64,000 nucleotides of DNA from Bacteroidota bacterium (GTDB lineage: Bacteria > Bacteroidota > Ignavibacteria > Ignavibacteriales > Melioribacteraceae), in contig JAKAEE010000008.1 of NCBI GenBank assembly GCA_021820065.1, forward strand, positions 12,488 through 76,487. The letters run 5' to 3'. Both the position numbers and the translations under genes were made by a program. The notes under the pieces are model-generated. The model was given only the letters and a program-made list of their open reading frames with translations. It did not search any database and was not told the origin of the DNA. This document shows, piece after piece, positions 5,360 to 34,179 of this stretch (positions are counted from its first letter, which is position 1; every line of letters starts with the position of its first letter).

Positions 5360-6490
5360 CTATCCAACCATAATCTCATACAATTTTCTATAACTTCTAA
5401 CCATTTTATCAATAGAGAAATTACCTTTCAGTTTTGAATTGGATTCTATGAAACGGTTTCTGTCCTTATGAATTTCTAATAACTTTAATACGTAATCGAT
5501 AGGATCATCTAATCTGAATAATTGATTAGAGCCATTACCAACAATTTCTGAATTTCCACCAACATCGGAAGCAAGTATAGGAATGTCTGCAAATATCGCC
5601 TCAATAAGACTTATCGAAAGTCCCTCATATCTTGAAGGAAGAGTAAAAACGTCAAATGCCTTAATATATCGGTATGATTCTTTGATAGGACCAACTAGAA
5701 AAAAGTCATTCGCAATACCAAGAGTACAAATTTTTTTGCTGAACATGTCGTAATTAGGTCCTTCACCAATAATAATGATTTTGGCTTCCGGAATTTTTTC
5801 TTTGATTAGGGAAAAATTATTTATCAAAAATTCATAGTTTTTTTGATATGCTAACCTGCCTGTAGAGCCTATTAAAAAGGAGTCCGAAAAATCTGTACCA
5901 CATTTATCACAGAAATATTTTCTTGCTTCATCTTTACATAGAAAGGACATTTCTTTTTCATCCAAACCATTATAAATCACTTCTATATTTCGTATGAAGC
6001 CTGACTCATTAGATTCATCAAAATTCAGCTTGCTAACAAAAACAGTTTTATCAACAAATTGTAAAAAAAATCTGAAATACACTTTTGCAAGGAATTTAAT
6101 AGTCCTACTAGTTTTATAATTCTTATCCAACAGAGAAAGACCGTGAAAGGTAAAGAGCGTCCTGGGTTTTTTCTTCAACAAATAGGTAGAAATTGCTCCG
6201 AACAAGGTGTTGGAGCTGTTTAAATGAACTATATCATAGTTATTCCTTTTCAATAATCGATGCAAATCAAAAATAAAGTAGAATGAATTAAGCACGCTAA
6301 AATCTCTCTTCAAAGAGTTCAAATAATGGTACGAAATATTATGCTTTTGAAGTTCCTCAAATAAAAAGTTTCCTTCGCCAGCTGCAACTTCAACATACAA
6401 ACCAGCTTGCTGAAGTGCACGAGCCAAGTTCAGAACAAACACCTGAGCACCACCTATTTCGGATTTTGTTATTACAAGGAGTATTTTCAT
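5360..6490 (-). CDS. Glycosyltransferase family 4
   Basis: 376 aa. MKILLVITKSEIGGAQVFVLNLARAL N-terminus; C-terminal PSRYEGLSISLIEA motif. Confidence 0.8.
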   Translation of the reverse strand: MKILLVITKSEIGGAQVFVLNLARALQQAGLYVEVAAGEGNFLFEELQKHNISYHYLNSLKRDFSVLNSFYFIFDLHRLLKRNNYDIVHLNSSNTLFGAISTYLLKKKPRTLFTFHGLSLLDKNYKTSRTIKFLAKVYFRFFLQFVDKTVFVSKLNFDESNESGFIRNIEVIYNGLDEKEMSFLCKDEARKYFCDKCGTDFSDSFLIGSTGRLAYQKNYEFLINNFSLIKEKIPEAKIIIIGEGPNYDMFSKKICTLGIANDFFLVGPIKESYRYIKAFDVFTLPSRYEGLSISLIEAIFADIPILASDVGGNSEIVGNGSNQLFRLDDPIDYVLKLLEIHKDRNRFIESNSKLKGNFSIDKMVRSYRKLYEIMVG

Positions 6491-18081: not shown

Positions 18082-18196
18082 AGGGTTTAGATGTGTGACT
18101 TTTTGATTGGTGAAATTAGTAATTCCAAAGACAAAATAAAAATTTAATCCTCATTATGCGAAGAGAAATCCAATTGAGCGCAACGATGTAATGGCA

Positions 18197-18232
18197 CACG
18201 GATGAACACGGATTAAATAGATTAGCACGGAT
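18197..18232. repeat. Three CACGGAT words
   Basis: CACGGAT at 18197, 18207 and 18226. Confidence 0.5.
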
Positions 18233-18401
18233 TTGTGATTCCTTTCATTTGAACGAAAGGAGATGTTTGCTTGATTTCAAAACAACTTCTTTGCGAGAGA
18301 CTTAATAAAATATTCGAAAGGAAAATTCTAAAAAGATTTCTTCTTAGGATAAACAAAAATCTAAATCAAATATTAATTGATGTTACGCAAAATCTATAGA
18401 A

Positions 18402-18474
18402 TGTCATGCTGAACTTGTTTCAGCATCTAGAAACAGCGCAAAAAAAGAGATTCCGAAACAAGTTCGGAATGACA
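18402..18474. repeat. Pair of inverted REP-like hairpins with compensatory stem changes
   Basis: TGTCAT-[GCTGAA-cttgt-TTCAGC]-ATCT ... AGAT-[TCCGAA-acaag-TTCGGA]-ATGACA. The loops and flanks are the same, the stems differ but both pair, and the flanks also pair with each other. Confidence 0.7.
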
Positions 18475-18543
18475 AATGTCCCCTTCTGTGTAACTTCAGT
18501 TATTAAGCAAAGAATTTGAGTGTACGGGTATTGAGTTTTCCAT

Positions 18544-18879
18544 TACTGCAAATCTGTACGTTGGTTTTGCAGACCTGTTAGGTAGCATTGCAAACGGATT
18601 TGTCAACTCTGCAAAGCAATTGTGCGGCGTTAAAATGATGTAAGCAAGCATTGCAATGACATTGTTCAAGTCTGCAACGGGATTTGTAAGTTCTGCAATG
18701 AGACAAGTTGGGCTGGAAATGGCATTAGTAAAGCTTGAAATCGTATTAGTAAACTCTGCAACGGCATTTGTTAGTCTTGCAATGATACATGTTGGTCTTG
18801 CAATGAGATAAGTTTGGCTTGAAATGTCTCAAATTCGTTCAGAAATACGATTAGTTTCGTCAAAGTTGCTTTTTTTTGC
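18544..18879. repeat. About 16 phased, degenerate 21-bp tandem repeats (core TTGCAA)
   Basis: The TGCAA-type anchor recurs at 18547, 18568, 18589, 18610, 18652, 18673, 18694, 18714, 18736, 18757, 18778, 18799, 18820 and 18841. No spacers and no ORF of 60 aa or more. Confidence 0.85.
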
Positions 18880-18949
18880 ATAGAAAGAGGTTTTGAAGGC
18901 AATTAAGGTAGCCTCCATTATCAAACGGCGGCGCACAAAGAATTGTTTA

Positions 18950-20845
18950 TTACTTTGCAACTATCATCTTCTTAATCGACTGGAAATTGCCCGCCGTTAG
19001 TTTGTAAACGTAAGTCCCACTTGAAAGTTTTGAAGCATCAAACTCTGCTTCAAATGTGCCGGCCGGTTTCATTTCATTTACCAAAGTTGAAACTTCTCTA
19101 CCAAGCATATCATAAATTCTCAGCGTTACAAAATTAGCTTCGGGCAAAGAGTAGGAAATCTTTGTTGATGGATTAAACGGATTTGGATAATTCTGATTCA
19201 GCGAGTAGTAAGCCGGAATTTCTTCTTGAGTAGATTCCTTTTCCAGTTTCAGTGCATTGTCATTATTATCCGCAACAATACTTGCTTGCGGCGGAGGGGT
19301 GTTAACAACATCAACATAAAATTCATTTGATACTTTAGTTGTGTTACTTCCGTCGCGAACTGTGCAGCGCAATTTAAAACTTCTTAGGTCATATGGATAA
19401 AAAGGTTTGCTAAATGTTGGAGAGTTTGTTCCAACTGGAACCCATTGACCGCTTATGACAGAGTTGGGACCAATTACTCTACTGGTATTGGCACTTAATA
19501 AATTTGCGCCATTACTGAAATAATATATCTCCCATTGATATGTAAATGGTGAAATACCATCAAGAGGTTGAACCCACCAATGACCAGTTCCTCCTTGATA
19601 AAGAGTGAAGTCCCCAATTAAAGATGCTCCAGATAATGGTTTCGAAAAAAATGACTCTCTTTCGAATAAGTAAAGTAACCCGGCCGTTGCACGAATAGCA
19701 TATATCAACGAATTTGAACCAATACTATTTAACTCATCTGTCCAACTACCAAATTGATTCGGGATGTTATTAATTATGCTTGACATTTCGGAGTAGTCAT
19801 CATTAGTATATTGATCCAATAAGTTAAAAGAACGATTTCCCACAAATGTTTCGTTGCTATATCTGTAGCAATTATAGACATCTGCAATTTGCGCTGTTGT
19901 ATAAAAAAGATATTTCAATGGGTTCTTTTTAGATCAAGCACTTATTACACCTCCTTGATTAATCGCATTTAGATAAGTCCAGTTCTCAGCTGGGAAAGCT
20001 GGTGGGATTGAATTACAACTCGAACCTGCACCCGACCAGTACTTACCGCCAATTTCCATTTCGTATCTATCACCTTTAGCCACATCACATGGATGTGATC
20101 TTATTCTAACATGCGCAGGGACACTCATATCCGCTAAAAGGTGACATAATCTTCCAAGAATGCTACCAGCAAAAATTACGTCATAATAATTATCACTTTG
20201 AACAATTTCAATTGGTTGAGAAAAATTAACTACGCTGTTTTCTGTAACAACTCCAGTAATATAATATCGTCTATTCTTCAATAAGTCCGGGAGTGTGCTA
20301 TATTTTATTTTCATATACAAATAAACCTGAGTCGGGGAAAACCCTTGGGCAACTAATGCTGTTTGTTCTTTTGATGTATAAGGAAAAGAAAAGGGGCCAG
20401 GCATATAAAGATCTTGATTTCCACCCCAAAGAATTTCAGCCTTTTTAAACGCATTTTCAAATTGACCGCTAGCATATTCAAGACTGTTTAAAGAATAGGG
20501 AGCTAAATCTGGATTCCAAAAATGGGAAGCCGAAACAGAAGTACATTATCTGAATGGTATTGGAAAACCACAATATCCAAAAACAATATCAGAATGATCT
20601 TCGGCCCAAGCGCCTCCTAGCGCGTGTGTAATTGAATAATGAGATGGTTCGCCATATGAATAAAAATTTCCATTTGAGTCTCTGAAGTAGCTGTCAAAAA
20701 GGGACGGCATTTGACCATATTGATTTTGTAAAAGTAAATACGCCTGTTTTATAATGTATTGATGTACCCATTCTTTGTGTGCTTTAATTGAGCTGGAACA
20801 AATAATAAATAAGGAAACAGTAATAAGAAAAATCATCTTTTTCAT
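18950..20845 (-). pseudogene. Zinc-dependent phospholipase C-like protein with a T9SS C-terminal sorting domain, interrupted by two in-frame stops
   Basis: The three track ORFs (20546..20902, 19934..20404, 18950..19918) share one frame. Hand translation across the gaps is continuous apart from TAA at 20546-20548 and TGA at 19934-19936. Motifs: signal peptide MKKMIFLITVSLFIICSSSIKA, HKEWVHQ, WAEDHSD, SHFWNPD, HLLADMSVPAHV. C-terminal YPNPFNPSTKISYSLP...LRIYDMLGREV...SGTYVYKL matches the Por sorting domain. Confidence 0.75.
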
Positions 20846-20873
20846 AACGAAACCCCTATATTTAATAAAAAAA

Positions 20874-21425
20874 TCATTTATTAAAATTCCACGATACACC
20901 AATAATTCCGAATGAAATTATTGGCTTATTATTAAATAGACTAATGTCAAGACCTCCTTCTACCTCCAGATTTAACTTGTCGCTTAAGGGTATAGAATAA
21001 GACGGATTAACGCCTACAAATGCAATAAAAGCACCGCCACTAAATTCGATACCTTTTGCAAGTACTAAAGTCAAGCCAGCATGTACATCAACAGCAAGAT
21101 TTCCTTTTAATAAAAGTTTCGGACCAGCTTTCACAAAGATGGAAAAATTTTTAATCCCAAATTCATTTGTCAATCCTATTTGGGGATAAGTTTGATCAAA
21201 AGACTCATCGTCATACCGATAACTTAAATTAATGAACATTTGCACCCCTTCAATAGAAATATAATCGTTGGTTTGCCATTGACTGTTGAATAACATACCT
21301 GAAGACAATATCAGCTTTTCATGTGAGGTATATTTCTCTTCTTCACTCTTTTGCTGAGAAAATACGTTTTGATGTAAAACAACAAATAAAATGAAGATAA
21401 CAAATAAAAAGGCATTGATTTTCAT
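20874..21425 (-). CDS. Small outer-membrane beta-barrel-like hypothetical protein
   Basis: 183 aa with a signal peptide (VVLHQNVFSQQ), alternating strand pattern and aromatic C-terminus (VSWNFNK). Confidence 0.5.
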   Translation of the reverse strand: MKINAFLFVIFILFVVLHQNVFSQQKSEEEKYTSHEKLILSSGMLFNSQWQTNDYISIEGVQMFINLSYRYDDESFDQTYPQIGLTNEFGIKNFSIFVKAGPKLLLKGNLAVDVHAGLTLVLAKGIEFSGGAFIAFVGVNPSYSIPLSDKLNLEVEGGLDISLFNNKPIISFGIIGVSWNFNK

Positions 21426-21760
21426 AATTATCCCTTAGTTTTAAAGTAATGTAAAAGAGTTTTGCACTATGTAAACCCAACAGAATATTTATTTAGAAAT
21501 CCCAGGCTGGAGAAATTAATTTCATCTGCAGAAAAAATAAAGAAGCAACAGAAAACAGGTATCAACTTACCCCCTGTTAAAAAATTATCACTTCATTAAT
21601 TGTAAAACCAATTGCGATTCGTCAAACTAATTTCATTTTCGTATTTCATTTTAACTGTCTAATATGTTAATCAACAAATTCTAACACTAATGTAATTCCA
21701 AAGGACATTTCTTTCAAGATAAAATCCGTACACCCAAAATTCTTGCACTCCTGAACAAAA

Positions 21761-21828
21761 TATAAAGACCGCAATGGTTTTCTGATCTGTTCACCACAAC
21801 AAGGCGAAAACCAATTACGGCCTTTATA
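21761..21828 (-). terminator. Long imperfect hairpin about 60 nt downstream of ftsZ (candidate dcw terminator)
   Basis: tataaagaccgcaatggttttc ... gaaaaccaattacggcctttata; on the minus strand it is followed by UAUUUUGUU. Confidence 0.4.
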
Positions 21829-21888
21829 AAGGGCAACATAGGGGAAACTTTATTTCATGCTCTTGCTCTTGTTCTTACTCTTTCGGCA

Positions 21889-23181
21889 TCAATCCATAAT
21901 TTTTCTTAAGAACGACGAACTGTCTTCCTCGTCGCTGTTCTTTTTGTTCGGATTGAAATCGTCATCAGAATAATCAACGTGTTCCGTTCTAAATCCGCTT
22001 TCGATATTTGCGTTCCGTGCAAACAAATCCAGATCGCCTTTATTATATCTAAGAATAGTTGGAATACTTAGGTCTTCGCTGTTTTCAAGATCGGCGCCTT
22101 TCTTTGTTGAAAATGCCGCACCGATGTTGCCGACTTTTTTCTCCGGCTTTCTCTCTGCTTTTTCCGATTTCAAACTACTGATTGGTTTCGAGCTCGCCTT
22201 TGTTTCGAACCCGGTTGCAATAACAGTATATGAAATGTATTCCGTCATCGATTCTTTATTAACGACTCCGAAGATTACATTTGCTTCTTCGCCGGCAGCT
22301 TCAAAGATTACATTGTTTCCGGTTTCAATTTCCTGCATAGTCATGTTTGCCGAACCGCTGACGTTGAGAAGAATATTTTTTGCACCTTTAATTGAAACAC
22401 CTTCAAGGAGCGGTGATGAAATTGCTTTCTGCGCAGCTTCGATGGCGCGGTTTTCTCCGCTTGAAATTCCACATCCCATCAACGCCTGTCCGCTGTCTCT
22501 CATTACGGTGCGGACGTCTGCAAAGTCAACATTAATAATTCCTTTAATTGTAATTATGTCTGCGATGCCGCGTGTAGCTTCATAAAGAATTTCATTCGGC
22601 TTATCGAATGCTGCTCGTGCAGCAGTTGCCGTATCGATTATGCTGAGAATCCTGCTGTTCGGAATAACAATCAACGAATCAACATACTGACGAAGTTCTG
22701 CAATTCCTTCGTCGGCATTTTTCATTCTTTGTTTTCCTTCCCATGTGAACGGTTTGGTAACGATACCGATCACGAGAGCGCCCAAACTTTTTGCAATCGA
22801 TGCAACTATTGGAGCTCCGCCCGTTCCCGTTCCGCCTCCCATACCGGCGGTAACAAAAACCATATCCGAGCCATCGAGAATATGAGTAATTTTTTCGCGG
22901 TCTTCTTCTGCGGCTTTCTTACCAACGTTTGGATCTGCACCGGCACCGAGCCCTCGTGTTACGTTTGTGCCGATTTGAATTTTGTGCAGCGCCGAACTTT
23001 CCTCCAGCACTTGCGCATCAGTATTGACAGCAACGAATTCAACCCCGTTCAAACCGCGGTTGATCATACTATCAATAGCATTGCAGCCGCCGCCCCCTAC
23101 TCCAACGACTTTAATTTGAGCAGACAATGGTCTTTGTGTTTCAAGAGTAAAAAAACGTGGCCGTTTTTCCATAGTTGACAT
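21889..23181 (-). CDS. ftsZ: Cell division GTPase FtsZ
   Basis: 430 aa. GVGGGGCNA and GGGTGTG tubulin signature; conserved C-terminal peptide region. Confidence 0.97.
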
Positions 23182-23207
23182 GATTCCTCCTTGTTGTGGT
23201 ATTTTAT

Positions 23208-24449
23208 TTATAGCTTGTCAAAAAATTCTTGTACTCTTTTGAACAGCTTGTTCACATTGAATTTGCTTTCCGTACTCGTACTCTTACCGACAGAAAAACT
23301 ATCCGATGCTTTTCCGGGAACGCCGCGGATTAATCCGGCAACTGTTGCAAACTCCGGACTTTCGACTTCGTTCGATAAACCGGAACCGAGATCGAGCGGA
23401 ACACCGATGCGTGCAGGCATTCCAAAAACTTCTTCAGCCAATTCCGTACTTCCTTTGAGAAGCGAGCCGCCGCCGGTTAATACGACACCGGCTTTAATCT
23501 TATTTTTGAATCCGGTGTGGCGCAGTTCGTTATCGATGATCGAGAAAAGTTCTTTCATTCTAATACTAATGATTTGTGTTAACAGCGAGAGAGGTATTTT
23601 GATGTTTCCTCTTCCGCCTATGCCCTTTATATATAAGTCTTCTTCTTTGATCATCGCTTGTTCGGTTGCGTAACCGTGTTCGCGTTTTAATTTTTCCGCA
23701 TCTGCAGTAACGATGCCGAGTGTTTCGCGGATATCGTTTGTAACTTGATTGCCCGCAACTCCAATTACTTTTGTATGCTTGATTGCTTTCTTGTGAAAGA
23801 CTGCCAAATCGGTTGTTCCGCCGCCGATATCAATCAACAAAACGCCTAAATCTTTTTCGTTTTCTTCCAGCACTGCATAGCTCGATGCAATCGGTTGAAG
23901 CACGTAATCTTTCACAACGTATCCCGCGCGCTCAACGGATTTTTTTATATTTTGAATTGCGGCAATAGAAGCAAGTACAACATGATTTACCGCTTCCAAT
24001 CTTGAGCCGCTCATTCCTATCGGATCGTCAATACCGCCCTGGTAATCCACAAAATATTCTTCCGGAATGATGTGAAGTATCTGGCGGTCTGAAGGAATTC
24101 TTATCGTCTGAACATCGCTTCTCAACCGGTCGAGATCGTCTTGTGTAATTTCTTTTTCAGGGTTGCTGATGGTTACATAATTTCTGTGACGTAAACTCGT
24201 AATATGTTCGCCCGCAACGCCTACGTTAAGTTCCTTAACCGACAAACCGGCTCTGTTGAGTGCAATGCTCATTGCCTGATTAATTGCTTCGGCAGTTTTG
24301 GAAATATTGGCTACCAATCCGCGGTTTAATCCTTCCGAAGGGGCAACGCCGAATCCGAGAATATTCATATTCGATTCAGATTGTTCCGCAATGACGGCAC
24401 AAACTTTTGTTGTGCCGAGATCGAGTCCTGCTATTATATTTTTCTTCAT
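23208..24449 (-). CDS. ftsA: Cell division protein FtsA
   Basis: Actin-like ATPase (GLDLGTTKVCAVIAE, DIGGGTTD). Start placed at the internal ATG (MKKNIIAGLDLG), just after the ftsQ stop at 24457. Confidence 0.93.
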   Translation of the reverse strand: MKKNIIAGLDLGTTKVCAVIAEQSESNMNILGFGVAPSEGLNRGLVANISKTAEAINQAMSIALNRAGLSVKELNVGVAGEHITSLRHRNYVTISNPEKEITQDDLDRLRSDVQTIRIPSDRQILHIIPEEYFVDYQGGIDDPIGMSGSRLEAVNHVVLASIAAIQNIKKSVERAGYVVKDYVLQPIASSYAVLEENEKDLGVLLIDIGGGTTDLAVFHKKAIKHTKVIGVAGNQVTNDIRETLGIVTADAEKLKREHGYATEQAMIKEEDLYIKGIGGRGNIKIPLSLLTQIISIRMKELFSIIDNELRHTGFKNKIKAGVVLTGGGSLLKGSTELAEEVFGMPARIGVPLDLGSGLSNEVESPEFATVAGLIRGVPGKASDSFSVGKSTSTESKFNVNKLFKRVQEFFDKL

Positions 24450-24456
24450 AATTTCT

Positions 24457-25266
24457 TCAACCCTGCCTGCCGGCTGGCAAGCCTTCATTTGAATTCGTCT
24501 CTGCTTTTCCGTTGGACGATTCTAAAATTCCAAGGTAAACGTGCCCGCCGTAACGCAGATCAACGTAATCCAAGTATTGATTAATTTCTTTCCCTTTCAA
24601 ATAATTCCAGAGATTATTTAGGTAAACAATTTTTCTAATCTCGCTTCCGCGACCGATTCTGATCGGATAATTGACCGACGAAAGATTTAGAATAATGTCG
24701 CCGCCGTTTTCCAGATCGATGGAAGAGAGTGAATCGTACAATTCCGGATTCAAAAGTTTAACCGACGAAATAATTTTTGCAGCGGTTACCACATCAAAAT
24801 TATTTCTCATCGAAGACAACGGTTGAACTGCTCCGTTAACGTTTGTGTTTGCGATGATCGGGTAATCAATTTTCTTTGTTTGATCAAATACCGGCAGCAC
24901 TTGCAGTTTATCAGTCACGATAAACTGGTTGTCGTCATTCAATAAAATAGCGATAAACGATTTTTCCGTAATCCTAATCGAGACTTGACCGTTTCCATCG
25001 TATCTGACATCAGCGCGTTCAACGTAAGGATGTTTTTCAATTCTATCTTTTATTACCTGCAAAGAAAGACCGGCGTAGTTATTTCTATCGAGCAAGTTCG
25101 CGTAACTCAGATACTGTTCCTTCGTAAGATGAACGTTTCCTTCCATCGCAATTATCTGAATGCTGTAACCGTTACCCGACTTTAGATTGACGGACAAATA
25201 AACAACCAAACCGAGTGTAACGACCAGAAAAATTGCGCTTATTATTTTTCCCAAAGCTTTCATCAA
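24457..25266 (-). CDS. ftsQ: Cell division protein FtsQ (POTRA)
   Basis: 269 aa. N-terminal TM helix followed by a POTRA-like region. Lies in the conserved position between murC and ftsA. Confidence 0.8.
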   Translation of the reverse strand: MMKALGKIISAIFLVVTLGLVVYLSVNLKSGNGYSIQIIAMEGNVHLTKEQYLSYANLLDRNNYAGLSLQVIKDRIEKHPYVERADVRYDGNGQVSIRITEKSFIAILLNDDNQFIVTDKLQVLPVFDQTKKIDYPIIANTNVNGAVQPLSSMRNNFDVVTAAKIISSVKLLNPELYDSLSSIDLENGGDIILNLSSVNYPIRIGRGSEIRKIVYLNNLWNYLKGKEINQYLDYVDLRYGGHVYLGILESSNGKAETNSNEGLPAGRQG

Positions 25267-26649
25267 CTATTTCTGCTTCTCTTTTAGAAATTGAACAAAC
25301 TTTTCGCCGAACTTCCATATATCGCCGGCGCCCATTGTAATTACGATATCACCCTTCTTGTAAATTTTTTGAAGCAGTTCCGGCACTTTAGTTTTATCCG
25401 GTTCATAGTAAACATGTTTGTGACCGAACTTTTTTGCAGTGTCGGCGATGAGCGAACCGTTAATTCCCTCAATCGGTTTTTCGCGCGCCGGGTAAACATC
25501 GGTGCAAATGAAAACATCAGAGTTCAAAAACGATCTTCCGAACTCGGCATAAAAATCGCGTGTGCGCGAAAACAGATGCGGCTGGAATACTGCAACCAAT
25601 CTTCTGTTCCATCCGCGGCGAATTCCGTCAAGCGTTACATTTATTTCCGTCGGATGATGGCCGTAGTCGTCAATCACCATCACGTCGTTATCGTATTTTT
25701 TCTCGAACCGGCGGTAAACACCGTTGAATGATTCGAGAGCTTTCTTGATCACGTCGAACTCAACACCCATTTGTTTTGCGATTGTAACTGCAACCAGAGA
25801 ATTTTTCACGTTGTGCAAGCCGGGGATGTTGATTCTCAATTTTCCGAGTTCTTTGCTGAGATATACCACAGTGAACTCGGAATAATTTTGCGAATGAGTA
25901 ATGTTTGCAGCACGAACATCAGCTTGCGGAGATAATCCGTAAGTAAAAATTTTCTTGTTGATTTGCGGAATTACATCCTGAAGCGCGGGTTCATCGAGAC
26001 ATAAAACTACAAATCCGAAGAAAGGAACTTTGTTCGCAAATTCTACAAAAGCTAATTTTATGTCATCCAAATCTTTGTATGTATCAAGATGTTCTTTTTC
26101 CAAAGTTGTAAGAGCGGCAATTGTGGGAGTTAATTTCAAAAATGTTCTGTCGAATTCGTCAGCTTCAACAACAATGTACTCGCCCTGACCGAGCCGCGCA
26201 TTTGTTCCGCCGAGTGAGCTAAGTTTTCCGCCGACAATAATTGTTGGATCAATTCCGGCTTCTGTTAATACTAAGCCAACCATCGAAGTCGTAGTAGTTT
26301 TTCCATGCGTTCCGGCAATTCCGATTCCATATTTCATTCTCATACATTCTGCTAACATTTCCGAACGCTTGATCACCGGAATTTTTCTTGCAAGGGCTTC
26401 TTTCACTTCCGGGTTTTCCAAATTCACCGCCGAGGAGTAAACGACAACATCCGCGTCTTTCAAATTATCAGATGAATGTCCTTCAAAAACTTTTATTCCC
26501 AAACTTTCGAGCCGGTCGGTCACTTCCGTTTTGTTCAGATCGGAACCGGTGATTGTGAATCCTTGACTCAATAAAATTTCAGCAATGCCGCTCATACCGA
26601 TTCCGCCGATACCGACAAAGTGAACATTTTTAACCGTCTTCATCATCAT
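25267..26649 (-). CDS. murC: UDP-N-acetylmuramate--L-alanine ligase
   Basis: 460 aa. HFVGIGGIGMSGIAE and GTHGKTTTTSM motifs. Confidence 0.95.
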   Translation of the reverse strand: MMMKTVKNVHFVGIGGIGMSGIAEILLSQGFTITGSDLNKTEVTDRLESLGIKVFEGHSSDNLKDADVVVYSSAVNLENPEVKEALARKIPVIKRSEMLAECMRMKYGIGIAGTHGKTTTTSMVGLVLTEAGIDPTIIVGGKLSSLGGTNARLGQGEYIVVEADEFDRTFLKLTPTIAALTTLEKEHLDTYKDLDDIKLAFVEFANKVPFFGFVVLCLDEPALQDVIPQINKKIFTYGLSPQADVRAANITHSQNYSEFTVVYLSKELGKLRINIPGLHNVKNSLVAVTIAKQMGVEFDVIKKALESFNGVYRRFEKKYDNDVMVIDDYGHHPTEINVTLDGIRRGWNRRLVAVFQPHLFSRTRDFYAEFGRSFLNSDVFICTDVYPAREKPIEGINGSLIADTAKKFGHKHVYYEPDKTKVPELLQKIYKKGDIVITMGAGDIWKFGEKFVQFLKEKQK

Positions 26650-26660
26650 AACTAATTTCC

Positions 26661-27761
26661 TTAAAGCATCTCGGCAAAATTAATTGCGCTCTCAGCAATT
26701 ACTTTTGCCGCTAATGGTTTTGCAAACTCCGAAATATTTTTTTTCAATTTTTCCTGCCGGACTTCATTGGACATAAGTTCATTCACGACGGGCAAAAACT
26801 CCGCCTCAACATTTTTATCTTCTATCAGTTCGGCTGCATTTGATTCTTTCATCGCTTTCGCATTCAGATACTGATGATTAGCCGCAACATTAGGCGACGG
26901 AACGAAAATAACCGGAAGCGTAAGAAACGAAACCTCTGCGATTGTCGTTGCACCGGCGCGCGCAAGCACAACATCGCTCGCAGAATATGCCGCCGACATA
27001 TCTCTAATAAACGGCATCACTTTCACAGAATCGTTCTCAAGATTTTTGTACTGATCAAAGTAAAACTGTCCCGTCTGCCAGATAACTTGAATTCCGTTTT
27101 CGTTTAATCCTTTTATGTTTCGTGCGACGGCTTGATTAATGGACCGCGCACCGCCGCTTCCGCCGATAATCAACAAAACTTTTTGGGCGGGGTTCAACGC
27201 GAAACTTTTTTTGGCGCTTGATTTATCAGCGAGCTTCAAGTTCACCCTTATCGGGTTGCCTGTAACTTTTAATTTCGATTGATCTCTAAAATATTTTTTA
27301 GATTCTTCGAACGTTAAATGAATTTCGTTCGCTTTCTTTTCAAGCATTCTGTTTGCAACGCCGGGATAACTGTTCTGCTCAAGCAGAATCACTTTTGCGC
27401 CGAGAACCGATGCCGCCCAAATGACGGGACCGGATACATATGCGCCGCTTCCGACTGCAACGCGCGGCTTGAACGAGAAACAAATCCCCAGCGATTGTAT
27501 CGCGGAGACAAAAAGTTTTATTGGGAAAAGAAGATTGCCCAGATTCAGTTTTCTGGAAAAGCCGCTGATCCAGATTGACTTGAAATCAAATTTGTATTCG
27601 GGAACGACACGCGATTCAATTTTGCTGTTTGCGCCGACGAACAAAATTTCTGCCTCCGGTTTCATAATTTGAATCTGCTGTGCAACGGCAAGCGCGGGAT
27701 ACAAATGTCCGCCCGTTCCGCCGCCCGCAAATACAAAACGATATGGAGTTTTACTTGTCAT
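26661..27761 (-). CDS. murG: Undecaprenyl-PP-MurNAc-pentapeptide GlcNAc transferase
   Basis: 366 aa. AGGGTGGHLYPALAVA N-terminus and GGSGGA motif. Confidence 0.95.
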   Translation of the reverse strand: MTSKTPYRFVFAGGGTGGHLYPALAVAQQIQIMKPEAEILFVGANSKIESRVVPEYKFDFKSIWISGFSRKLNLGNLLFPIKLFVSAIQSLGICFSFKPRVAVGSGAYVSGPVIWAASVLGAKVILLEQNSYPGVANRMLEKKANEIHLTFEESKKYFRDQSKLKVTGNPIRVNLKLADKSSAKKSFALNPAQKVLLIIGGSGGARSINQAVARNIKGLNENGIQVIWQTGQFYFDQYKNLENDSVKVMPFIRDMSAAYSASDVVLARAGATTIAEVSFLTLPVIFVPSPNVAANHQYLNAKAMKESNAAELIEDKNVEAEFLPVVNELMSNEVRQEKLKKNISEFAKPLAAKVIAESAINFAEML

Positions 27762-28870
27762 CCTACCTGCGCAATTTTTAATTCTGTTGTTTTAACTGTT
27801 TGTCGTCCAACATTCACAATTATTCCAATCGATACCGCAAAAAGGATAATTGAAGTACCGCCAAAACTTATGAACGGAAGCGTGATGCCGGTCGTAGGAA
27901 GCAAACCGGTTACCACCCCAGCATTTATAAATGCGCTTACAATAATGTTGAATCCCAAACCAAGAACGAGAAGCTGACCGAATCTGTCTTGAGCTTTCTT
28001 TGCAATTATAAGACAAGTGAGAAATAAAACGAGATACAAAAACAAAATCGTCACGGCGCCAACAAATCCCATCTGCTCGCCGAGAATTGAAAAAATAAAA
28101 TCGCCATACGATTCGGGTAGAAATAAATCGCTTTGCCTGCTGTGTCCTAGTCCTACGCCTAAAAGTCCGCCGCTGCCCAATGCAATTTTTGCCTGTTTAA
28201 CTTGAATGTTTATGTCGCCGCCGTTAATCAAACTTTCTATAAAAGTGATTACCCTTTCGCGGGAGTGCTTAAACAACATAATTGCAGCGCTCATCACAAA
28301 ACCCGCTGAAAAAATTATTCCGAAGATGTGTCTCAATCTCGCGCCGCCTGCAAACAAAAGAGCAAAACCGGTTATTGCAATAATCAAACTTGTGCTCACG
28401 TTCGGCTGAATCAAAACCAGCCCGCTTATTATTCCAATCCATATCAGGGGAAACTTGAAGCCTTTATTGAAATCTTTCAGGTCGTCGCCCATTTTTTCCA
28501 TCATCATTGCCAGGTGCATAATCAAGAAAACTTTTGCAGCTTCCGAAGGTTGAAACTGGAAGAATCCGAGATCGATCCATCTTGAAGCGCCTTTTACTTT
28601 CGGCGCGAACAAAAACGTTAACACTAAAACCGCGATGATGAAGAACATAAGTTTTTTGCTGTGATCGCGGTATTTATCATAAGGAATCAGTGAACAAACA
28701 ATCATTGCAACAATTGCTGCGAGAACTTTCCATAGGTGCGACTTGAATAAGAAATACAAATTGTTGAACCGCGTTAAGCTGTACGTTCCGCTTGCGGTGA
28801 ATACAATGATTGCGCCAAGCGAAATCATTATCACGACAAGAATGATCAATATTTTAACAAGAGTATTCAT
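27758..28870 (-). CDS. ftsW: Lipid II flippase/peptidoglycan polymerase FtsW (SEDS)
   Basis: 370 aa, polytopic. FQPSEAAK and LPTTGITLPFISFGG SEDS motifs. Confidence 0.93.
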   Translation of the reverse strand: MNTLVKILIILVVIMISLGAIIVFTASGTYSLTRFNNLYFLFKSHLWKVLAAIVAMIVCSLIPYDKYRDHSKKLMFFIIAVLVLTFLFAPKVKGASRWIDLGFFQFQPSEAAKVFLIMHLAMMMEKMGDDLKDFNKGFKFPLIWIGIISGLVLIQPNVSTSLIIAITGFALLFAGGARLRHIFGIIFSAGFVMSAAIMLFKHSRERVITFIESLINGGDINIQVKQAKIALGSGGLLGVGLGHSRQSDLFLPESYGDFIFSILGEQMGFVGAVTILFLYLVLFLTCLIIAKKAQDRFGQLLVLGLGFNIIVSAFINAGVVTGLLPTTGITLPFISFGGTSIILFAVSIGIIVNVGRQTVKTTELKIAQVG

Positions 28871-30219
28871 TAAGCTAATTTGTTAACCGCTTCTTTAAAA
28901 ACTTTGCCGCGATGTTCGTAATTGTCGAACATATCGAAACTTGCGCAAGCCGGAGACAGCAAAACTATTGTTCCCTTCTCTGCTTCTTTTCTTCCCGCCG
29001 TCACACAACTTTCCATCGAGTCTTTGAACTCGGTAGGAACAATTGTGTGAAAGTAATCGTAAACTTTTTGTGCCGAGGAGCCGATCGCGTAGATTTTCTT
29101 CACGTTTTTTTTAACCAAATCTTTCAGGCGGTCGTAATCGTTTCCTTTGTCTTTTCCGCCGAGAATCAAATACAAAGGTTTGTCAAAACTTCTTAGCGCG
29201 TACCAAACCGAATCAACGTTTGTCGCTTTGGAATCGTTAACGAATTCGACTCCATCAAGCTCGCGAACAAATTCGAGACGATGTTCTACACCCTGAAATG
29301 ACGAAAACGCTTCTCGTATTTTTTGATTCGGTATGTGCAGAAGTTTTGCAACGGCAAGCACAGCAAGAGCATTCGCTAAATTATGTTCGCCTTTAATGTA
29401 CAAGTCTGTACCCGATGCAACTTCTTCAACTGTTCCAGACCACGCAAAGAACAACTTGCCTTCTTTATAAAAGGCGCCGGCTGGTAATTCGTCTTTCAAG
29501 GAGAAGGCAAGTCTCTGAACTTTTTTGTTCTTCAAATTTGCACTGATGTACTGATCGTCTGCGTTATATATGAAATAATCTTCTTCATTTTGATTTGCTG
29601 CGACTTTCAGTTTCGATTCGATGTACTCGTCAAAATTATTATGATACCGGTCGAGATGATCCGGCGTGATATTCAGTATCAATGCAAAGCGCGGTTTGAA
29701 TCCATCAATATGATCCAATTGAAAACTGGAAGTCTCAAGCGCAACGTACTCGTTTTCATTCACCAATGGAGCGGTTTCAGAAAAAGCATCGCCGATATTT
29801 CCCGCCGCGAAAGTTTTAATTCCAGCCAAGTTAAGCGTGTACGCCATCAGAGTAGTCGTTGTTGTCTTTCCGTTTGTTCCTGTGATCGAAATAACTTCGC
29901 CTTTGCAGAACCACGAAGCAAATTCGACTTCGCTGAAAATCTTAATTTTCTTTTCGATTGCTTTCAAAAGAACAGGTGAATCGCTGGGAACGCCGGGACT
30001 TGTAACAATGAAATGGCAATCGTAAACTTTTTCCGAATGAGCGCCGCACTCGTAAGCAATTCCTTCGGCTTCAAAAACCGAAACTGATTTTCCGAGTTTG
30101 TCTATTGGACTGCTGTCGCTCACAAACGGAACGGCTCCAAATTGTTTAGCAAGTTTCGCCGCGCCGATTCCGCTTCTAACTGCGCCAATGATCGATATTT
30201 TTTTCCCGCGTATATCCAT
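28870..30219 (-). CDS. murD: UDP-N-acetylmuramoylalanine--D-glutamate ligase
   Basis: Start trimmed to MDIRGKKISIIGAVRSG (ATG 30217-30219, a TAATG overlap with the mraY stop). GTNGKTTTT motif. Confidence 0.93.
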   Translation of the reverse strand: MDIRGKKISIIGAVRSGIGAAKLAKQFGAVPFVSDSSPIDKLGKSVSVFEAEGIAYECGAHSEKVYDCHFIVTSPGVPSDSPVLLKAIEKKIKIFSEVEFASWFCKGEVISITGTNGKTTTTTLMAYTLNLAGIKTFAAGNIGDAFSETAPLVNENEYVALETSSFQLDHIDGFKPRFALILNITPDHLDRYHNNFDEYIESKLKVAANQNEEDYFIYNADDQYISANLKNKKVQRLAFSLKDELPAGAFYKEGKLFFAWSGTVEEVASGTDLYIKGEHNLANALAVLAVAKLLHIPNQKIREAFSSFQGVEHRLEFVRELDGVEFVNDSKATNVDSVWYALRSFDKPLYLILGGKDKGNDYDRLKDLVKKNVKKIYAIGSSAQKVYDYFHTIVPTEFKDSMESCVTAGRKEAEKGTIVLLSPACASFDMFDNYEHRGKVFKEAVNKLA

Positions 30220-31328
30220 TACCTTATCTTGAACGATGCCAAACTGATTATTGCCAAAATTATTGTGATGATGTAAAACCGGATTACAATTTTCGGTTCC
30301 GCCCAATCCAATTGTTCAAAGTGATGATGAATAGGCGCCATCTTGAAAACGCGGCGTCCTTCACCGTATTTTTTCTTCGTGTATTTGAAATAAAGCCGTT
30401 GAATGATAACCGAAAGAGTTTCGACAAAATAAATTCCGCCGAGAATTGGAATAAGCAAATCTTTCTTGATCAATATCATCATAACGCCGAAAGCTCCGCC
30501 GAGTGCGAGCGAGCCGGTGTCTCCCATGAAAACTTGAGCGGGATAAAAATTGAACCATAAGAATCCGAGTCCAGCACCGATCAATGCAGCAATAAAAACC
30601 GTCAACTCTCCCGATCCCGGCAGATACATGATGTTCAGGTAATCTGCGTAGATCACGTTTCCGCTGATGTAGCTAATAATTGCCAGCGCCAGCATCACAA
30701 TTATAATTGTTCCAATGGCAAGGCCGTCTAGTCCATCAGTAAGATTGACAGCGTTGGAAATTGCGGTGATGATAAACACGACCCACGGAATATAGAGATA
30801 CGAAAAATCCCAATTCAAATTTTTGAAGAACGGCAATGTTGTTTGCGTATTGAACTGCGCAAACTCCGGCAAGAAATAAATTGCAAGACCAACAACCAAT
30901 CCAACAAAAATTTGACCGATTAATTTGTATCGCGCAATTAATCCTTTGGGAAGTTTTTTAACTACTTTTAAGTAATCGTCAAGAAATCCGACAGCGCCCA
31001 AAAAAATCGTTCCGAACAAGACAAGGATTATGTATGTGCTTTTTATATTGCTCCATAATAGAACGGGTACTACAACCGAAAATAAAATTATCAATCCGCC
31101 CATTGTTGGAGTGCCTGCTTTTTTCTTGTGCGTCGTTGGTCCGTCGTCGCGTATCGGCTGATCAACTTGCTGCTTTTTTAATCTATCAATGATTTTCGGT
31201 CCGATGTAAAGAGACATTACAAGCGCAGTAATTGCCGCGAGCGCCGACCGAAAAGTTAGAAACCGGAATATGTCGAATCCCGGCGGACTAAAACGTTGAT
31301 TTATCCAATCAAAGAGATAGTAAAACAT
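30219..31328 (-). CDS. mraY: Phospho-N-acetylmuramoyl-pentapeptide transferase
   Basis: 369 aa, polytopic. NLTDGLDGLA and MGDTGSLALGG motifs. Confidence 0.96.
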   Translation of the reverse strand: MFYYLFDWINQRFSPPGFDIFRFLTFRSALAAITALVMSLYIGPKIIDRLKKQQVDQPIRDDGPTTHKKKAGTPTMGGLIILFSVVVPVLLWSNIKSTYIILVLFGTIFLGAVGFLDDYLKVVKKLPKGLIARYKLIGQIFVGLVVGLAIYFLPEFAQFNTQTTLPFFKNLNWDFSYLYIPWVVFIITAISNAVNLTDGLDGLAIGTIIIVMLALAIISYISGNVIYADYLNIMYLPGSGELTVFIAALIGAGLGFLWFNFYPAQVFMGDTGSLALGGAFGVMMILIKKDLLIPILGGIYFVETLSVIIQRLYFKYTKKKYGEGRRVFKMAPIHHHFEQLDWAEPKIVIRFYIITIILAIISLASFKIR

Positions 31329-32713
31329 TATTCAAACCTTGTCTCCAAAATGTTAACGAATTCTTCCATCTTCATTCCGCGCGATCCTTTAACAAGAATC
31401 ACGGAATCTTCTATCTCTTCATATTTCAAATAGAGCGATAAAGCTTCGCGAAGATGGAAATGAATTGATCTTACTTTCATCTTTCTTAATTCTTTGTGCA
31501 GATTTTTCATCATTGCGCCGACAGTAAGCACAGTGATGTTTTTGCTCGGCGAAAAATTTCTGGCTAACGAAGCGTGAAGCTTTGCCGATTGACCGCCCAG
31601 CTCGAACATATCTCCAAGTACAAACAATTTTTTCTTAAACGTTTTAACTTTTTGAACCAGATCGATCGCAGATTCCGTCGATGCCGGACTCGCGTTGTAT
31701 GTGTCGTCGATTACAACTGCGTGTTTGAATTTTTTCACTTCAAGCCTCCCGTGAACCGATTTTAATTTCTTAGAACCGTTAACGATTTGCTTTGGTGTTA
31801 ATCCCAACTCTATTGCCACAGCCGATGAAGTCAGAAAATTTTTTGCATTCGATTCTCCATAAACCGGAAGAATTGTCTCAAACTTCTTGCCGTTACGAAT
31901 TTCAATTTTTGTTCTGCCGTCGTTCGTAAAGCCCAAAATTTTCCCTTTAACATCTGCAGAACCTTTGAATCCAAACGTAATTTTGTCTTTATATTTTTTG
32001 GTTCGGGCGCTAATTATCGGGTCGTCACCGTTCACCAGAATTTTTCCGCCGTGATTTTTCGTCACTGCAAACAAAGCAGATTTTTCCTTGTACACGCCTT
32101 CGCGGTTTTTCAAAAATTCCAGGTGAGAATCACCAATGTTGGTTATCAGCGCATAATCCGGCTGCGAAATTGCCGCCGAGTATGCTATCTCGCCGAAATG
32201 ATTTGTCCCTTGTTCAAGAACCAGCGCTTCACATTTTTCATCGGAACTTAATATTGTAAGCGGAACGCCAATATGATTGTTGTTGTTCGCTTCGGTTTTG
32301 ACTACGGAATATTTTTCGCCTAGAATAGTTGCTATCATTTCCTTCACAGTAGTTTTACCGTTACTGCCAGTAATTGAAATTACTTTTGCGTTCAATTTAT
32401 TTCGCCATGTCTTGGCAATTTCTCCGAATGCTTTCGTCGTGTCGCTTACCGTTACGACAGGTATGTTCAGCGAATCAAATCTTTTAAACTTCTTTACATC
32501 AATTACTATTGCACTCGCACCGTTTTTAACCGCGCCAAAAACAAATTCGTGTCCGTCAAATTTTTCTCCCTTTATCGCTACGAACAAACATCCTCTCTTT
32601 ACTTTTCTTGAATCGATTACAACCGAAGAAACGGGGTGGTATCCGTCGGGATTATAAATCACCGCGCTTGGAATGTTGAACAAATCTTCAATTGTAATTT
32701 TTATCTTGCCCAT
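31328..32713 (-). CDS. murF: UDP-MurNAc-tripeptide--D-Ala-D-Ala ligase
   Basis: 461 aa. ITGSNGKTTVKEM motif; Mur ligase order in the cluster. Confidence 0.93.
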   Translation of the reverse strand: MGKIKITIEDLFNIPSAVIYNPDGYHPVSSVVIDSRKVKRGCLFVAIKGEKFDGHEFVFGAVKNGASAIVIDVKKFKRFDSLNIPVVTVSDTTKAFGEIAKTWRNKLNAKVISITGSNGKTTVKEMIATILGEKYSVVKTEANNNNHIGVPLTILSSDEKCEALVLEQGTNHFGEIAYSAAISQPDYALITNIGDSHLEFLKNREGVYKEKSALFAVTKNHGGKILVNGDDPIISARTKKYKDKITFGFKGSADVKGKILGFTNDGRTKIEIRNGKKFETILPVYGESNAKNFLTSSAVAIELGLTPKQIVNGSKKLKSVHGRLEVKKFKHAVVIDDTYNASPASTESAIDLVQKVKTFKKKLFVLGDMFELGGQSAKLHASLARNFSPSKNITVLTVGAMMKNLHKELRKMKVRSIHFHLREALSLYLKYEEIEDSVILVKGSRGMKMEEFVNILETRFE

Positions 32714-34179
32714 TCTGCCAAATATTTTTGTGCAATCTCTTTATCTGAAAAATGCTTTCGTACTCCGTTTACTTCTTGGTAGTTCTCGTGTCCCTTGCCT
32801 GCGATTAAAATCACGGCATTGTCTTCGCTTTCAAAAACTGCAGATCGAATTGCTTCTTCGCGGTTTTCGATAACACGGTAATTATTGGTTTTGATGCCTT
32901 TCAGAATTTCATCGATAATTTGAAAAGGGTCTTCCGTGCGCGGATTATCCGACGTTACGTAAACACGATCACTCATCGATGCAGCAATATTTCCCATCAC
33001 GGGACGTTTTGTTGCGTCGCGGTCGCCGCCGCATCCGAACACCGTGTAAACCGGTCGATCTTTTTTAACTATGTGATGAACTGCTCTTAACGCCTGCAGC
33101 AGCGAATCCGATGTATGAGAATAATCAACAATCACTTTTTTATTTTTTTCGGAAACAACTTCAAACCTTCCCGGAACTTGCGGGGTTGTTTGGATTCCCT
33201 TGATCGCAGTGTCGGCATCGATTCCGCTGACGATTGCGGTAACGAAAGCCGCTGAAGCATTGTAAGCATTAAAATGCCCAACCAAACTTGTCGTTAAATG
33301 ATAATCTTCGCCGATGTAATTAAGAATGAAACTTGTTCCGTCGAGTGTGAATTCAATGTTGCTTAGAACAAAATCGCCAATTGAAACCGAACCGTAAGAA
33401 TATTTTTTCGCTTTGGAATCTTTGATAATTGACTTTGAACTCGGGTCGTCGGCATTGAAAATAATTTTTCCACTCGGAGGAATCATATCGAACAAAATCT
33501 TTTTTGATTCGAGATAATGATCGAATGTTTTATGATAGTCCATGTGATCGGAAGTAATGTTGGTAAAGATTCCGGCGCCGAAATTCAGGTAATCAACTCT
33601 GTTCAGGCGTAATGCGTGAGACGAAACTTCCATCACGCAGTGAGTGCATCCTTCCGAAACCATCTGCGAAAGCAGCGCATTAATTTCATTTGCCTGCGGT
33701 GTCGTCAATAAAGTTTTGACTTCACGTTCGCCGATATAATTTGCAATCGTACCGATCAATCCGGTCTTGAATCCGGCTTGCTGAAAAACATTCTTCATGT
33801 AAAACGCTGTAGTTGTTTTTCCTTTTGTTCCTGAAATTCCAACGAGCATAAGTTTTTTGGATGGTTCACCGTAAAAAATGTTGGACATTTCTGCCAAGGA
33901 TTTTCTGCTGTCACTTACAACAATCTTCACGCAACGGGCATGAGCAAATATTTGATCGGGCACTGCATCTGCTTTTTGCAGAACAACGCCGCTTGCGCCT
34001 TGATTAATTACATCCTGAATAAATTTATGTCCGTCTGTTTTGAAACCTTCGATTGCAAAAAAGAGCGAGTTCTTGCCGGCAATTCTCGAGTCAATTGTAA
34101 TGCTGGTAATCTCCTTCAACTCAGCATTTCCAATTACCTGAATGGCTTTAACCTTATTTAGCAGCTCGCTTAACTTCAT
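32701..34179 (-). CDS. murE: UDP-MurNAc-L-Ala-D-Glu--2,6-diaminopimelate (or Lys) ligase
   Basis: 492 aa. GISGTKGKTTT motif and a DNPR motif near the C-terminus (TSDNPRTEDP). Confidence 0.93.
   Translation of the reverse strand: MKLSELLNKVKAIQVIGNAELKEITSITIDSRIAGKNSLFFAIEGFKTDGHKFIQDVINQGASGVVLQKADAVPDQIFAHARCVKIVVSDSRKSLAEMSNIFYGEPSKKLMLVGISGTKGKTTTAFYMKNVFQQAGFKTGLIGTIANYIGEREVKTLLTTPQANEINALLSQMVSEGCTHCVMEVSSHALRLNRVDYLNFGAGIFTNITSDHMDYHKTFDHYLESKKILFDMIPPSGKIIFNADDPSSKSIIKDSKAKKYSYGSVSIGDFVLSNIEFTLDGTSFILNYIGEDYHLTTSLVGHFNAYNASAAFVTAIVSGIDADTAIKGIQTTPQVPGRFEVVSEKNKKVIVDYSHTSDSLLQALRAVHHIVKKDRPVYTVFGCGGDRDATKRPVMGNIAASMSDRVYVTSDNPRTEDPFQIIDEILKGIKTNNYRVIENREEAIRSAVFESEDNAVILIAGKGHENYQEVNGVRKHFSDKEIAQKYLAEWAR

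Follow-up and report, generated by a model that had tools for sequence, protein, structure and literature searches.

The binding sites of LytTR-type regulators (AgrA, ComE and AlgR) are direct repeats of ~9 bp placed ~12 bp apart, which gives a period of 21 bp. The same period is found in ArgR operators, in which two 18-bp ARG boxes are separated by 3 bp. CRISPR arrays contain repeats of 23-50 bp alternating with unique spacers of similar length, and are usually accompanied by cas genes. The targets of RemA, a LytTR-related ring, are stretches of repetitive DNA with little sequence conservation, located far upstream of the eps promoter in B. subtilis, and the RemA octamer has been proposed to wrap this DNA around itself (PMC8481266). 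BldC is asymmetric and polymerises head-to-tail on direct repeats that lie on one face of the DNA, the number of repeats varying with the target (PMC5859096). Here we compare with these systems a direct-repeat array that lies upstream of an EPS operon in the window, namely the whole stretch of 64,000 nucleotides (64 kb) that was analysed.

The array lies in an 868-bp gap (18082-18949) between a broken T9SS-cargo gene and the minus-strand EPS operon; both the size of the gap and the position of the array are as given in the first-pass annotation. The array contains 15 consecutive units, each of exactly 21 bp, with zero indels in 315 bp (Table 1). In a 21-nt register that starts at 18541, the core TGCAA or TGAAA occupies columns 7-11. 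TGCAA anchors are located at 18547, 18589, 18610, 18652, 18673, 18694, 18757, 18778 and 18799, and degenerate forms at 18568, 18631, 18715, 18736, 18820 and 18841. These are the anchor positions listed originally, with one of them shifted from 18714 to 18715. The self-identity of the array at lag 21 is 0.549, versus 0.264±0.024 (maximum 0.343) in 2000 shuffles, and is 0.51-0.56 at lags 42, 63 and 84. All top-scoring 300-bp windows for lag-21 identity within the 64 kb are over the array, while TRF picks up its better-preserved portion, with periods of 21 and 84.

The edges of the array were defined with a position weight matrix (PWM). In-register scores, from a PWM trained on the same units that it then scored, are 9-23 bits for the 15 units and negative on both sides of the array. 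A supposed 16th unit (18856-18876) scores -8.9. Thus, the array has 15 units with sharp edges, and the strict 21-bp phasing described earlier stands, while the earlier count of about 16 units does not. Because 21 bp corresponds to two turns of B-DNA (2 x 10.5), all 15 sites lie on one helix face. The palindromic core noticed earlier, CATTGCAATG, is indeed located at 18649-18658. However, TTGCAA is a true palindrome in only ~4 units, because nine of the 16 units counted have T at column 6 and seven have C. The case for a dimeric binder made from the palindrome is therefore weak.

Table 1. Features of the array and its surroundings (positions in the window; a dot marks a feature to which no strand is assigned).
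Feature	Position	Strand	Basis or remark
ftsZ	21889-23181	-	ORF scan/Pfam
Lineage-specific insertion	18082-21790	-	from ftsZ terminator hairpin to first EPS gene; relatives, Pfam
T9SS-sorted gene fragments	20546-20902, 19934-20404, 18950-19918	-	Pfam
Non-repeat spacer	18856-18949	-	from stop of T9SS-cargo gene (18950) to array
Haplotype breakpoint, left edge of array	18833-18842	.	comparison with L006
In-frame TGA	18829-18831	-	kept in all three haplotypes
21-bp direct-repeat array	18541-18855	.	15 units; register and column counts, PWM
Array unit consensus, TAGTTTTGCAATGGTATTAGT		+	
Higher-order 84-bp period (4-unit blocks)	18667-18834	.	TRF period 84, 78% matches
Double-hairpin element	18403-18473	-	two 25-nt modules in inverted orientation
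CACGGAT, three copies	18197-18232	+	within 36 bp; 116-151 bp upstream of EPS start codon (18081)

The units are ~53% identical to one another, and a higher-order arrangement is superimposed on them. Specifically, the blocks 18667-18750 and 18751-18834 are 71-78% identical, an older third copy is present at 18583-18666, and unit-by-unit identity at lag 84 reaches 18/21. The two similar 84-bp blocks indicate that the array grew by duplication of 4-unit blocks. Mismatches between these two copies have no adenine specificity, unlike those of a DGR.

The minus strand carries nearly all genes near the array, among them every gene of the dcw-to-EPS stretch. They are arranged in the order murC-ftsQ-ftsA-ftsZ, a 183-aa ORF, three T9SS-gene fragments (the one at 18950-19918 carrying Por_Secre_tail by Pfam), the array and the EPS operon. 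The EPS operon contains, from 18081, a 247-aa gene followed by genes for an RfbB-like dehydratase, SLBB/Wza, Wzz, Wzy, flippases and glycosyltransferases. The nearest genomes are Ignavibacteriota (Melioribacter-like) MAGs, in which the 247-aa protein is 51-57% identical and FtsZ 65-75% identical. In four of the four relatives compared, ftsZ has its conserved terminator hairpin, and only 170-290 bp separate ftsZ from the 247-aa gene's homologue. Neither a match to the inserted ORFs nor 21-bp periodicity nor a copy of the unit is found at the ftsZ-EPS locus of these four Ignavibacteriota relatives. Because ftsZ adjoins the first EPS gene there, the array is located within a lineage-specific insertion of ~3.7 kb, which contains the 183-aa ORF, the three T9SS-sorted gene fragments, the array and a hairpin element. 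An ordinary gene at this position in relatives, which had been considered at the outset, is not what they carry; nothing is there, and ftsZ abuts the EPS gene. The array is dispensable for the EPS operon as such, since the relatives, at 50-57% protein identity, have the operon without it.

The spacer on the T9SS side of the array holds a degenerate copy of a terminator hairpin that is intact in haplotype L006, and an ATG at 18881 starts a 36-codon frame that ends at a TAA stop inside the array. On the EPS side, the first hairpin of the double-hairpin element, read on the minus strand, is followed by a T-run and is terminator-like, 68 nt past the array. The element is a dispersed repeat, found too on Treponema saccharophilum megaplasmids, and a literature search returned no match to its sequence. 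Three of the seven copies of CACGGAT in the whole window are clustered closer to the EPS operon, and this cluster is absent from the relatives. The CACGGAT cluster is a candidate promoter-proximal operator of the EPS operon, likelier in this role than the array, which is 460-775 bp from the EPS start codon with the terminator-like hairpin between.

Five contigs, which come from different samples and were built by different assemblers, are 100% identical over the 868-bp gap. This excludes an assembly artefact, a concern voiced in the first-pass annotation. The NCBI MAG GCA_023381535.1 has two differences in the gap, both outside the array, and the gap has the same length in all six contigs that cover it whole. 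No length change was found among seven assemblies, from three haplotypes, that contain all or nearly all of the array, which argues against the earlier suggestion of a copy-number-variable expression switch. A VNTR or contingency locus is likewise disfavoured, since copy number is constant and the haplotypes in the assemblies compared differ by substitutions only.

Sequence variation is concentrated in the array. Haplotype L012 differs from the window at 26 of 315 array positions (8.3%) versus 2 of 365 flanking positions (0.5%), without indels and without gaps in the array as far as the contig runs, and its upstream T9SS protein is identical to that of the window. In this comparison the array diverges ~15 times faster than its flanks, and 17 of the 26 changes cluster within three adjacent units. 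L006 is ~99% identical to the window from ~18842 rightwards, with no array gap there. To the left of the breakpoint, the T9SS C-terminal-domain gene whose end is present in L006 is a different one, the GC-rich terminator is intact, and ~110 nt have diverged but still include one in-phase unit-like 21-mer. The left edge of the array is thus a recombination breakpoint. Because the haplotypes differ by substitutions only, the array is variable in sequence yet fixed in length and phase.

Conservation is unevenly distributed over the unit. Columns 6-13 (YTGMAATG), 16-18 (ATT) and 20-21 (GT) are conserved, while columns 1-2, 4-5, 14-15 and 19 are variable and near-random. The variance of column match counts is 8.4 versus 3.3 in permutations (p=5e-5), and the heterogeneity has p=0.01 once the recent 84-bp copy is dropped. 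In L012, five changes fall in the eight conserved columns versus 9.9 expected (P=0.033), the conserved columns having been defined on the same array that was then tested, and only one of the five departs from the consensus. Moreover, no indel is present at ~53% unit identity, where neutral decay would normally leave several, judging from typical bacterial indel-to-substitution ratios. The uneven columns, the deficit of L012 changes in conserved columns and the zero indels together point to selection acting on the nucleotide motif and the spacing of the array, as far as can be judged from comparison of units and haplotypes.

These observations bear on the possibility that the array is a functionless minisatellite. 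According to this explanation, slippage or unequal recombination multiplied a 21-bp unit, and later 84-bp blocks, within DNA that was recently inserted and is decaying; the array would be kept because it is harmless, and its conserved columns would reflect shared ancestry and gene conversion, not selection. We regard this as a serious but somewhat doubtful account. It agrees with a lineage-specific array inside an insertion that holds a fragmented gene, with the higher-order 84-bp duplication, and with a hot spot of variation whose changes are clustered as in gene conversion. It also agrees with pattern scans in which metagenomes and viral contigs prove rich in 21-bp arrays of diverse, unrelated types, and with the fact that searches for a partner protein, a promoter and dispersed copies found none. 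In contrast, neutrality predicts several indels among 15 units this diverged, and it does not readily produce column conservation this uneven, haplotype differences that fall in the conserved columns less often than expected and, where they do, mostly bring the sequence back to the consensus, or a copy number that is constant among assemblies. Similarly, the array resembles VNTR loci in having tandem units of ~20 bp, an intergenic location, higher-order duplication and raised local variability, but differs from them in that it has no copy-number polymorphism and its old units are perfectly phased with column-specific conservation.

A single long open reading frame crosses the array. It extends over 111 codons of the minus strand (18828 to 18496), with the heptad x-[L/F/P]-T-[N/C/Y]-x-[I/V/F]-[A/S], and ends 22 nt before the stem of the terminator hairpin, ~47 nt before its T-run. 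The array could accordingly be read as a gene for a heptad-repeat protein, either a relic inactivated by the TGA at the head of the frame or a gene translated through it. The frame is kept open in three haplotypes despite 26 substitutions, and it ends just ahead of a terminator. The heptad pattern also runs upstream through the TGA (DETNRIS, ERI*DIS), which sits where other units have TGT, TAC or AAT, and HMMER finds other predicted small proteins with xxTNxIA heptads.

Nevertheless, the properties of the frame argue against coding. No ATG, GTG or TTG follows the TGA until 18669; the ATG at 18881 is in another frame, whose 36 codons end early; and the L006 sequence upstream of the TGA is unrelated and has many stops. 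Shuffling columns among units yields 0.74 expected stops in the frame versus 1 observed, so the long open frame is what the column composition of the units predicts. Information by codon position is 5.05, 6.15 and 5.29 bits, which shows no 3-base periodicity, and variability falls on pairs of adjacent columns, not on each third base. In addition, synonymous third positions are over-conserved relative to the codon usage of the window (14/15 NTT, p<=0.01; 12/14 NCA, p=2.6e-4; these wobble bases belong to codons 6 and 7 of the heptad), while the first and second positions of the other codons are saturated, and proline is present at core heptad positions in seven units.

Protein searches are consistent with this result. 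The frame-0 peptide has no match in a word-indexed protein search. The HMMER and profile matches are singleton ORFs that overlie other tandem arrays and whose tails are unrelated; most of the HMMER matches come from a dispersed, eukaryotic-looking minisatellite, one match is fused to a reverse transcriptase, and other profile matches come from a cyanobacterial 21-bp array and a GC-rich array. A plus-strand 51-aa ORF predicted by gene callers matches only itself. A protein-coding heptad-repeat gene was thus rejected for its lack of a start codon, its in-frame TGA, the absence of a period of 3 and the absence of protein-family homologues, and the codon-position tests disfavour the repeat-protein relic proposed at first. 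Judged from these patterns, we conclude that the array is no gene and that what is conserved in it today is not a gene's footprint; a relic or read-through gene is improbable.

The terminator-like hairpin raises the question of whether the array acts as RNA. In this alternative, the minus strand would be transcribed as a repeat noncoding RNA, or as the 3' UTR of the upstream gene, ended by the hairpin and T-run at 18470-18440, and its ~15 copies of ACnAAUnnCnUUGCA would either soak up a small RNA or RNA-binding protein, as a sponge, or give it a platform. The hairpin lies on the appropriate strand downstream of the array. In L006 a terminator lies on each side of the array, as in a transcription unit of its own, and a cyanobacterial 21-bp array with a similar unit also precedes a strong hairpin on the same relative strand. 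If transcription read through from the upstream gene, the array would be part of a 3' UTR in the haplotype of the window, whereas L006 has a terminator before the array. However, folding of the array RNA equals that of shuffles on both strands (z = -0.36 and +0.23), and no Rfam family reaches its gathering score, the best E-value matches being far below threshold; a structured noncoding RNA or Rfam family was rejected on these grounds. A Bacteroidota-type promoter, TTTG-N19-TATGTTTG, is present upstream of tRNA-Pro, but the -7 motif TAnnTTTG is absent from the minus strand across the entire gap, in the window as well as in L006, and a sigma-54 promoter scan gives background only. The terminator itself comes from a dispersed repeat and need not be a component of the array, and we know of no RNA-binding precedent for a 21-nt spacing. 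An RNA role for the array is possible, but a repeat RNA of the kind described is, to our judgement, a poor prospect.

The classes of repeat DNA that serve replication, partition or defence fit less well. With its 15 x 21 bp, the array has the form of an iteron set (17-22 bp tandem direct repeats in helical phase), and its phased direct units resemble iterons or parC in general style. An AT-rich stretch ~150 bp away and the location in inserted DNA would also suit an iteron origin, or a partition centromere, of an integrated or former plasmid or phage. However, Pfam finds no rep, par or integrase gene in the ORFs scanned around the array, which cover the EPS cluster, the insertion and further neighbours, and no gene for a parA/parM-type NTPase or its adaptor is present among the scanned neighbours. 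Cumulative GC skew is monotonic over the array site, with no switch, which is not oriC-like. A blastn search of 72,556 plasmid and 50,697 phage records returned the hairpin element and no match to the array. In addition, 15 units are far above typical iteron sets. An origin or centromere, also among the earlier suggestions, is thus unsupported, and we consider it very improbable. The earlier statement that the array is not a CRISPR is borne out by its contiguous 21-mers without spacers and by the absence of cas domains from the scanned neighbours.

DNA curvature had also been suggested as a check. With the wedge parameters used, the ratio of end-to-end distance to contour length is 0.871 for the array, while shuffles give 0.879±0.071 and genomic windows 0.887±0.067. 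The wedge model thus predicts no intrinsic curvature, and phased A-tract curved DNA was rejected because predicted curvature is not above background.

We searched for similar arrays and for proteins that might bind this one. The unit motif is not above background elsewhere in the 64 kb, nor in the ftsZ-EPS intergenic regions of the relatives, and the array is therefore not part of a visible regulon. A pattern of five TGMAA at 21-bp spacing retrieves heterogeneous, unrelated arrays among the matches listed from metagenome and viral contigs, where the best similarity to the consensus, 9 of 14 free columns, is about what chance would give among the 256 arrays listed. The unit of the cyanobacterial array is similar at 15 of 21 positions, which may be chance given the number of arrays searched. 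A blastn search of the array against metagenome and viral contigs returned no matches. Among the Pfam-scanned ORFs of the EPS cluster and its neighbourhood there is no candidate binding protein; the only regulator among them is an unrelated AraC-type gene beside a metal ATPase, and no LytTR or RemA gene is present among the scanned ORFs of the 64 kb.

Of the four options listed in the first-pass annotation, the evidence favours, indirectly, a phased landing pad for a regulator or nucleoid protein. We tentatively propose, from the pattern of the repeats, that the array is noncoding DNA constrained at the nucleotide level and serves as a phased direct-repeat landing pad for an oligomer-forming DNA-binding protein. 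Each site would consist of the 8-bp core YTGMAATG and a second block, ATT.GT, ~9 bp or one helical turn away. A protein that forms oligomers, either a regulator or a nucleoid-associated protein, would bind head-to-tail cooperatively or wrap the array, and the resulting nucleoprotein block would lie where the dcw/ftsZ cluster meets the EPS operon. From there, it could modulate the expression of this operon, ~0.4-0.8 kb downstream, or insulate it. Protein binding, the identity of the binder and the effect on the EPS operon are all what we infer from these features.

A more specific version, rather unlikely in all its parts together, is that an Ignavibacteriota protein polymerises on or wraps ~15 asymmetric sites, arranged in 84-bp modules, to form a boundary or switch that sets EPS expression. 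The array would then be enhancer- or insulator-like, its spacer bases evolving freely while core and phase are fixed.

Several of the results above count against the landing pad. The scanned ORFs offer no binder, and the motif does not recur in the window or the relatives. The EPS start codon is distant and lies behind a hairpin, with the three CACGGAT copies as a nearer operator candidate. The relatives do without the array, and the wedge model gives it no curvature. Finally, divergence ~15 times faster than that of the flanks is unusual for a tightly used operator.

Compared with the known systems, the proposed landing pad has partial likenesses. As with LytTR and RemA sites, the array presents an 8-bp core every 21 bp upstream of an EPS operon, in agreement with the LytTR spacing. 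However, known LytTR sites are paired and within ~160 bp of the promoter, whereas the array has 15 sites, 0.4-0.8 kb off and behind a terminator. To our knowledge, the core of the array does not match the published consensus sites of LytTR or RemA. Like BldC targets, the array consists of direct repeats on one DNA face, but BldC repeats are 9 bp with one-turn spacing and 2-4 per site, whereas the array has one site per two turns and 15 sites.

The array shares with ArgR operators the 21-bp centre-to-centre distance and the single face, and its TG.AA and ATT have the same 9-bp offset as TGAAT....ATTCA, which is a lead only. Other than that, ARG boxes are palindromic with an AT-rich centre, while the array units lack symmetry and keep a G at column 13, and ArgR uses 1-3 boxes versus 15 here, where there is no arginine gene context. 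Iteron and parC arrays likewise are ~20-bp tandem direct repeats on one helical face, known to be bound cooperatively by many copies of one protein. In contrast, the array is chromosomal, between housekeeping and EPS genes, without adjacent initiator or partition genes, with 15 copies versus ~4-10, and without a skew switch or plasmid or phage similarity. Membership of the array in the iteron/parC, LytTR, RemA, BldC or ArgR families is in no case demonstrated.

The array belongs to a familiar class, namely intergenic, degenerate, phased direct-repeat arrays, and the evidence gives nothing categorically new. It is a little unusual in its many units, in its hypervariable sequence at strictly fixed length and core, and in its location at the junction of dcw and T9SS-cargo/EPS genes. 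If a protein coats the array, it would be a clean natural case of a long one-face site array that regulates or insulates, in a little-studied phylum and beside a polysaccharide operon, and three natural haplotypes already reveal which bases can change and which cannot. If the array is only a tolerated minisatellite, it illustrates that a long open "heptad" frame can arise purely from the column composition of repeats, and that gene callers and profile searches then collect spurious look-alike ORFs from unrelated arrays.

Several contigs terminate inside the array or exactly at the downstream hairpin modules, as expected where strains differ or where a repeat is dispersed.

The double-hairpin element near the 21-bp array consists of two 25-nt modules, GTCATGCTGAACTTGTTTCAGCATC and GTCATTCCGAACTTGTTTCGGAATC, which are inverted relative to each other, and GTCATTCCGAACTTGTTTCGGAATC is followed by a T-run. 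A near-identical element is present at several intergenic sites of Treponema saccharophilum megaplasmids, with 82% identity over 73 nt and 97% over 33 nt, and the module order is reversed at one of these sites. Three metagenome contigs of the same species as the window start exactly at a module. Together, the sequences suggest a dispersed REP/MITE-like element or mobile terminator common to different phyla. Rfam holds no matching entry, and a literature search with the element sequence found no paper containing it.

Positions of the features in the window and in the compared sequences.
Feature	Sequence	Position	Strand	Remark
Double-hairpin element	Window	18403-18473		~70 nt
Double-hairpin element	L258 (compared DNA)	1500-1566
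Double-hairpin element	L259 (compared DNA)	1468-1530
Long hairpin just 3' of ftsZ	Window	21791-21850	-
Counterpart of ftsZ hairpin	L014 (related genome)	~5830-5905
Counterpart of ftsZ hairpin	L015 (related genome)	~5850-5925
Counterpart of ftsZ hairpin	L016 (related genome)	~1855-1930
Counterpart of ftsZ hairpin	L017 (related genome)	~5775-5860
CACGGAT, three copies	Window	18197-18232	+	Starts 10 and 19 bp apart
T9SS-sorted gene, three ORFs	Window	18950-20902	-	118 + 156 + 322 aa
Cyanobacterial (HIP1-rich) 21-bp array	L260 (compared DNA)	923-1100
Cyanobacterial (HIP1-rich) 21-bp array	L265 (compared DNA)	534-760
Cyanobacterial (HIP1-rich) 21-bp array	L266 (compared DNA)	150-380

The hairpin downstream of ftsZ is probably the ftsZ terminator. 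It is kept in five Ignavibacteriota genomes (the window and four relatives), and its sequence conservation is unusually high. The inner segment is invariant (CCTTGTTGTGGTG), and the outer stem contains two compensatory pairs. An Rfam search returned no match for this hairpin.

The CACGGAT triplet, which accounts for three of the seven copies of this motif in the whole 64-kb window, lies 116-151 bp before the start codon of the first EPS gene and is likely to be a promoter-proximal operator. It was not found in the corresponding intergenic regions of the four relatives. The G+C content of the EPS cluster (0.30-0.39, window 1-22000) is markedly below that of the adjoining dcw cluster (0.41-0.44, 22000-36000), which fits a polysaccharide island exchanged by horizontal transfer.

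The T9SS-sorted gene is broken up identically in all assemblies; it is therefore a genuine pseudogene or split gene and not a sequencing error. The fragments include a signal peptide and an HxxxDxxxPxH-like motif, which suggest a candidate zinc phospholipase C or S1/P1-type enzyme.

The cyanobacterial arrays form a family and contain 8-10 units of ACAAATGCGATTGCTGAAATA each, and array variants differ by 42 bp in copy number. A 125-nt block upstream of the arrays is conserved. All three keep a start codon in an identical place, and they are followed by a strong hairpin. The cyanobacterial unit matches the minus-strand unit of the window array at 15 of 21 positions, which may reflect homology, convergence or chance.

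Public catalogues contain dozens of singleton 'proteins' with ATNSIANGTNSIAK and unrelated tails (P0005, P0011-P0019, P0024 and others), one of them fused to reverse transcriptase. They evidently arise by translation of a 42-bp dispersed minisatellite located on very long contigs. The precomputed Hep_Hag (PF05658) hit on some of them looks spurious.
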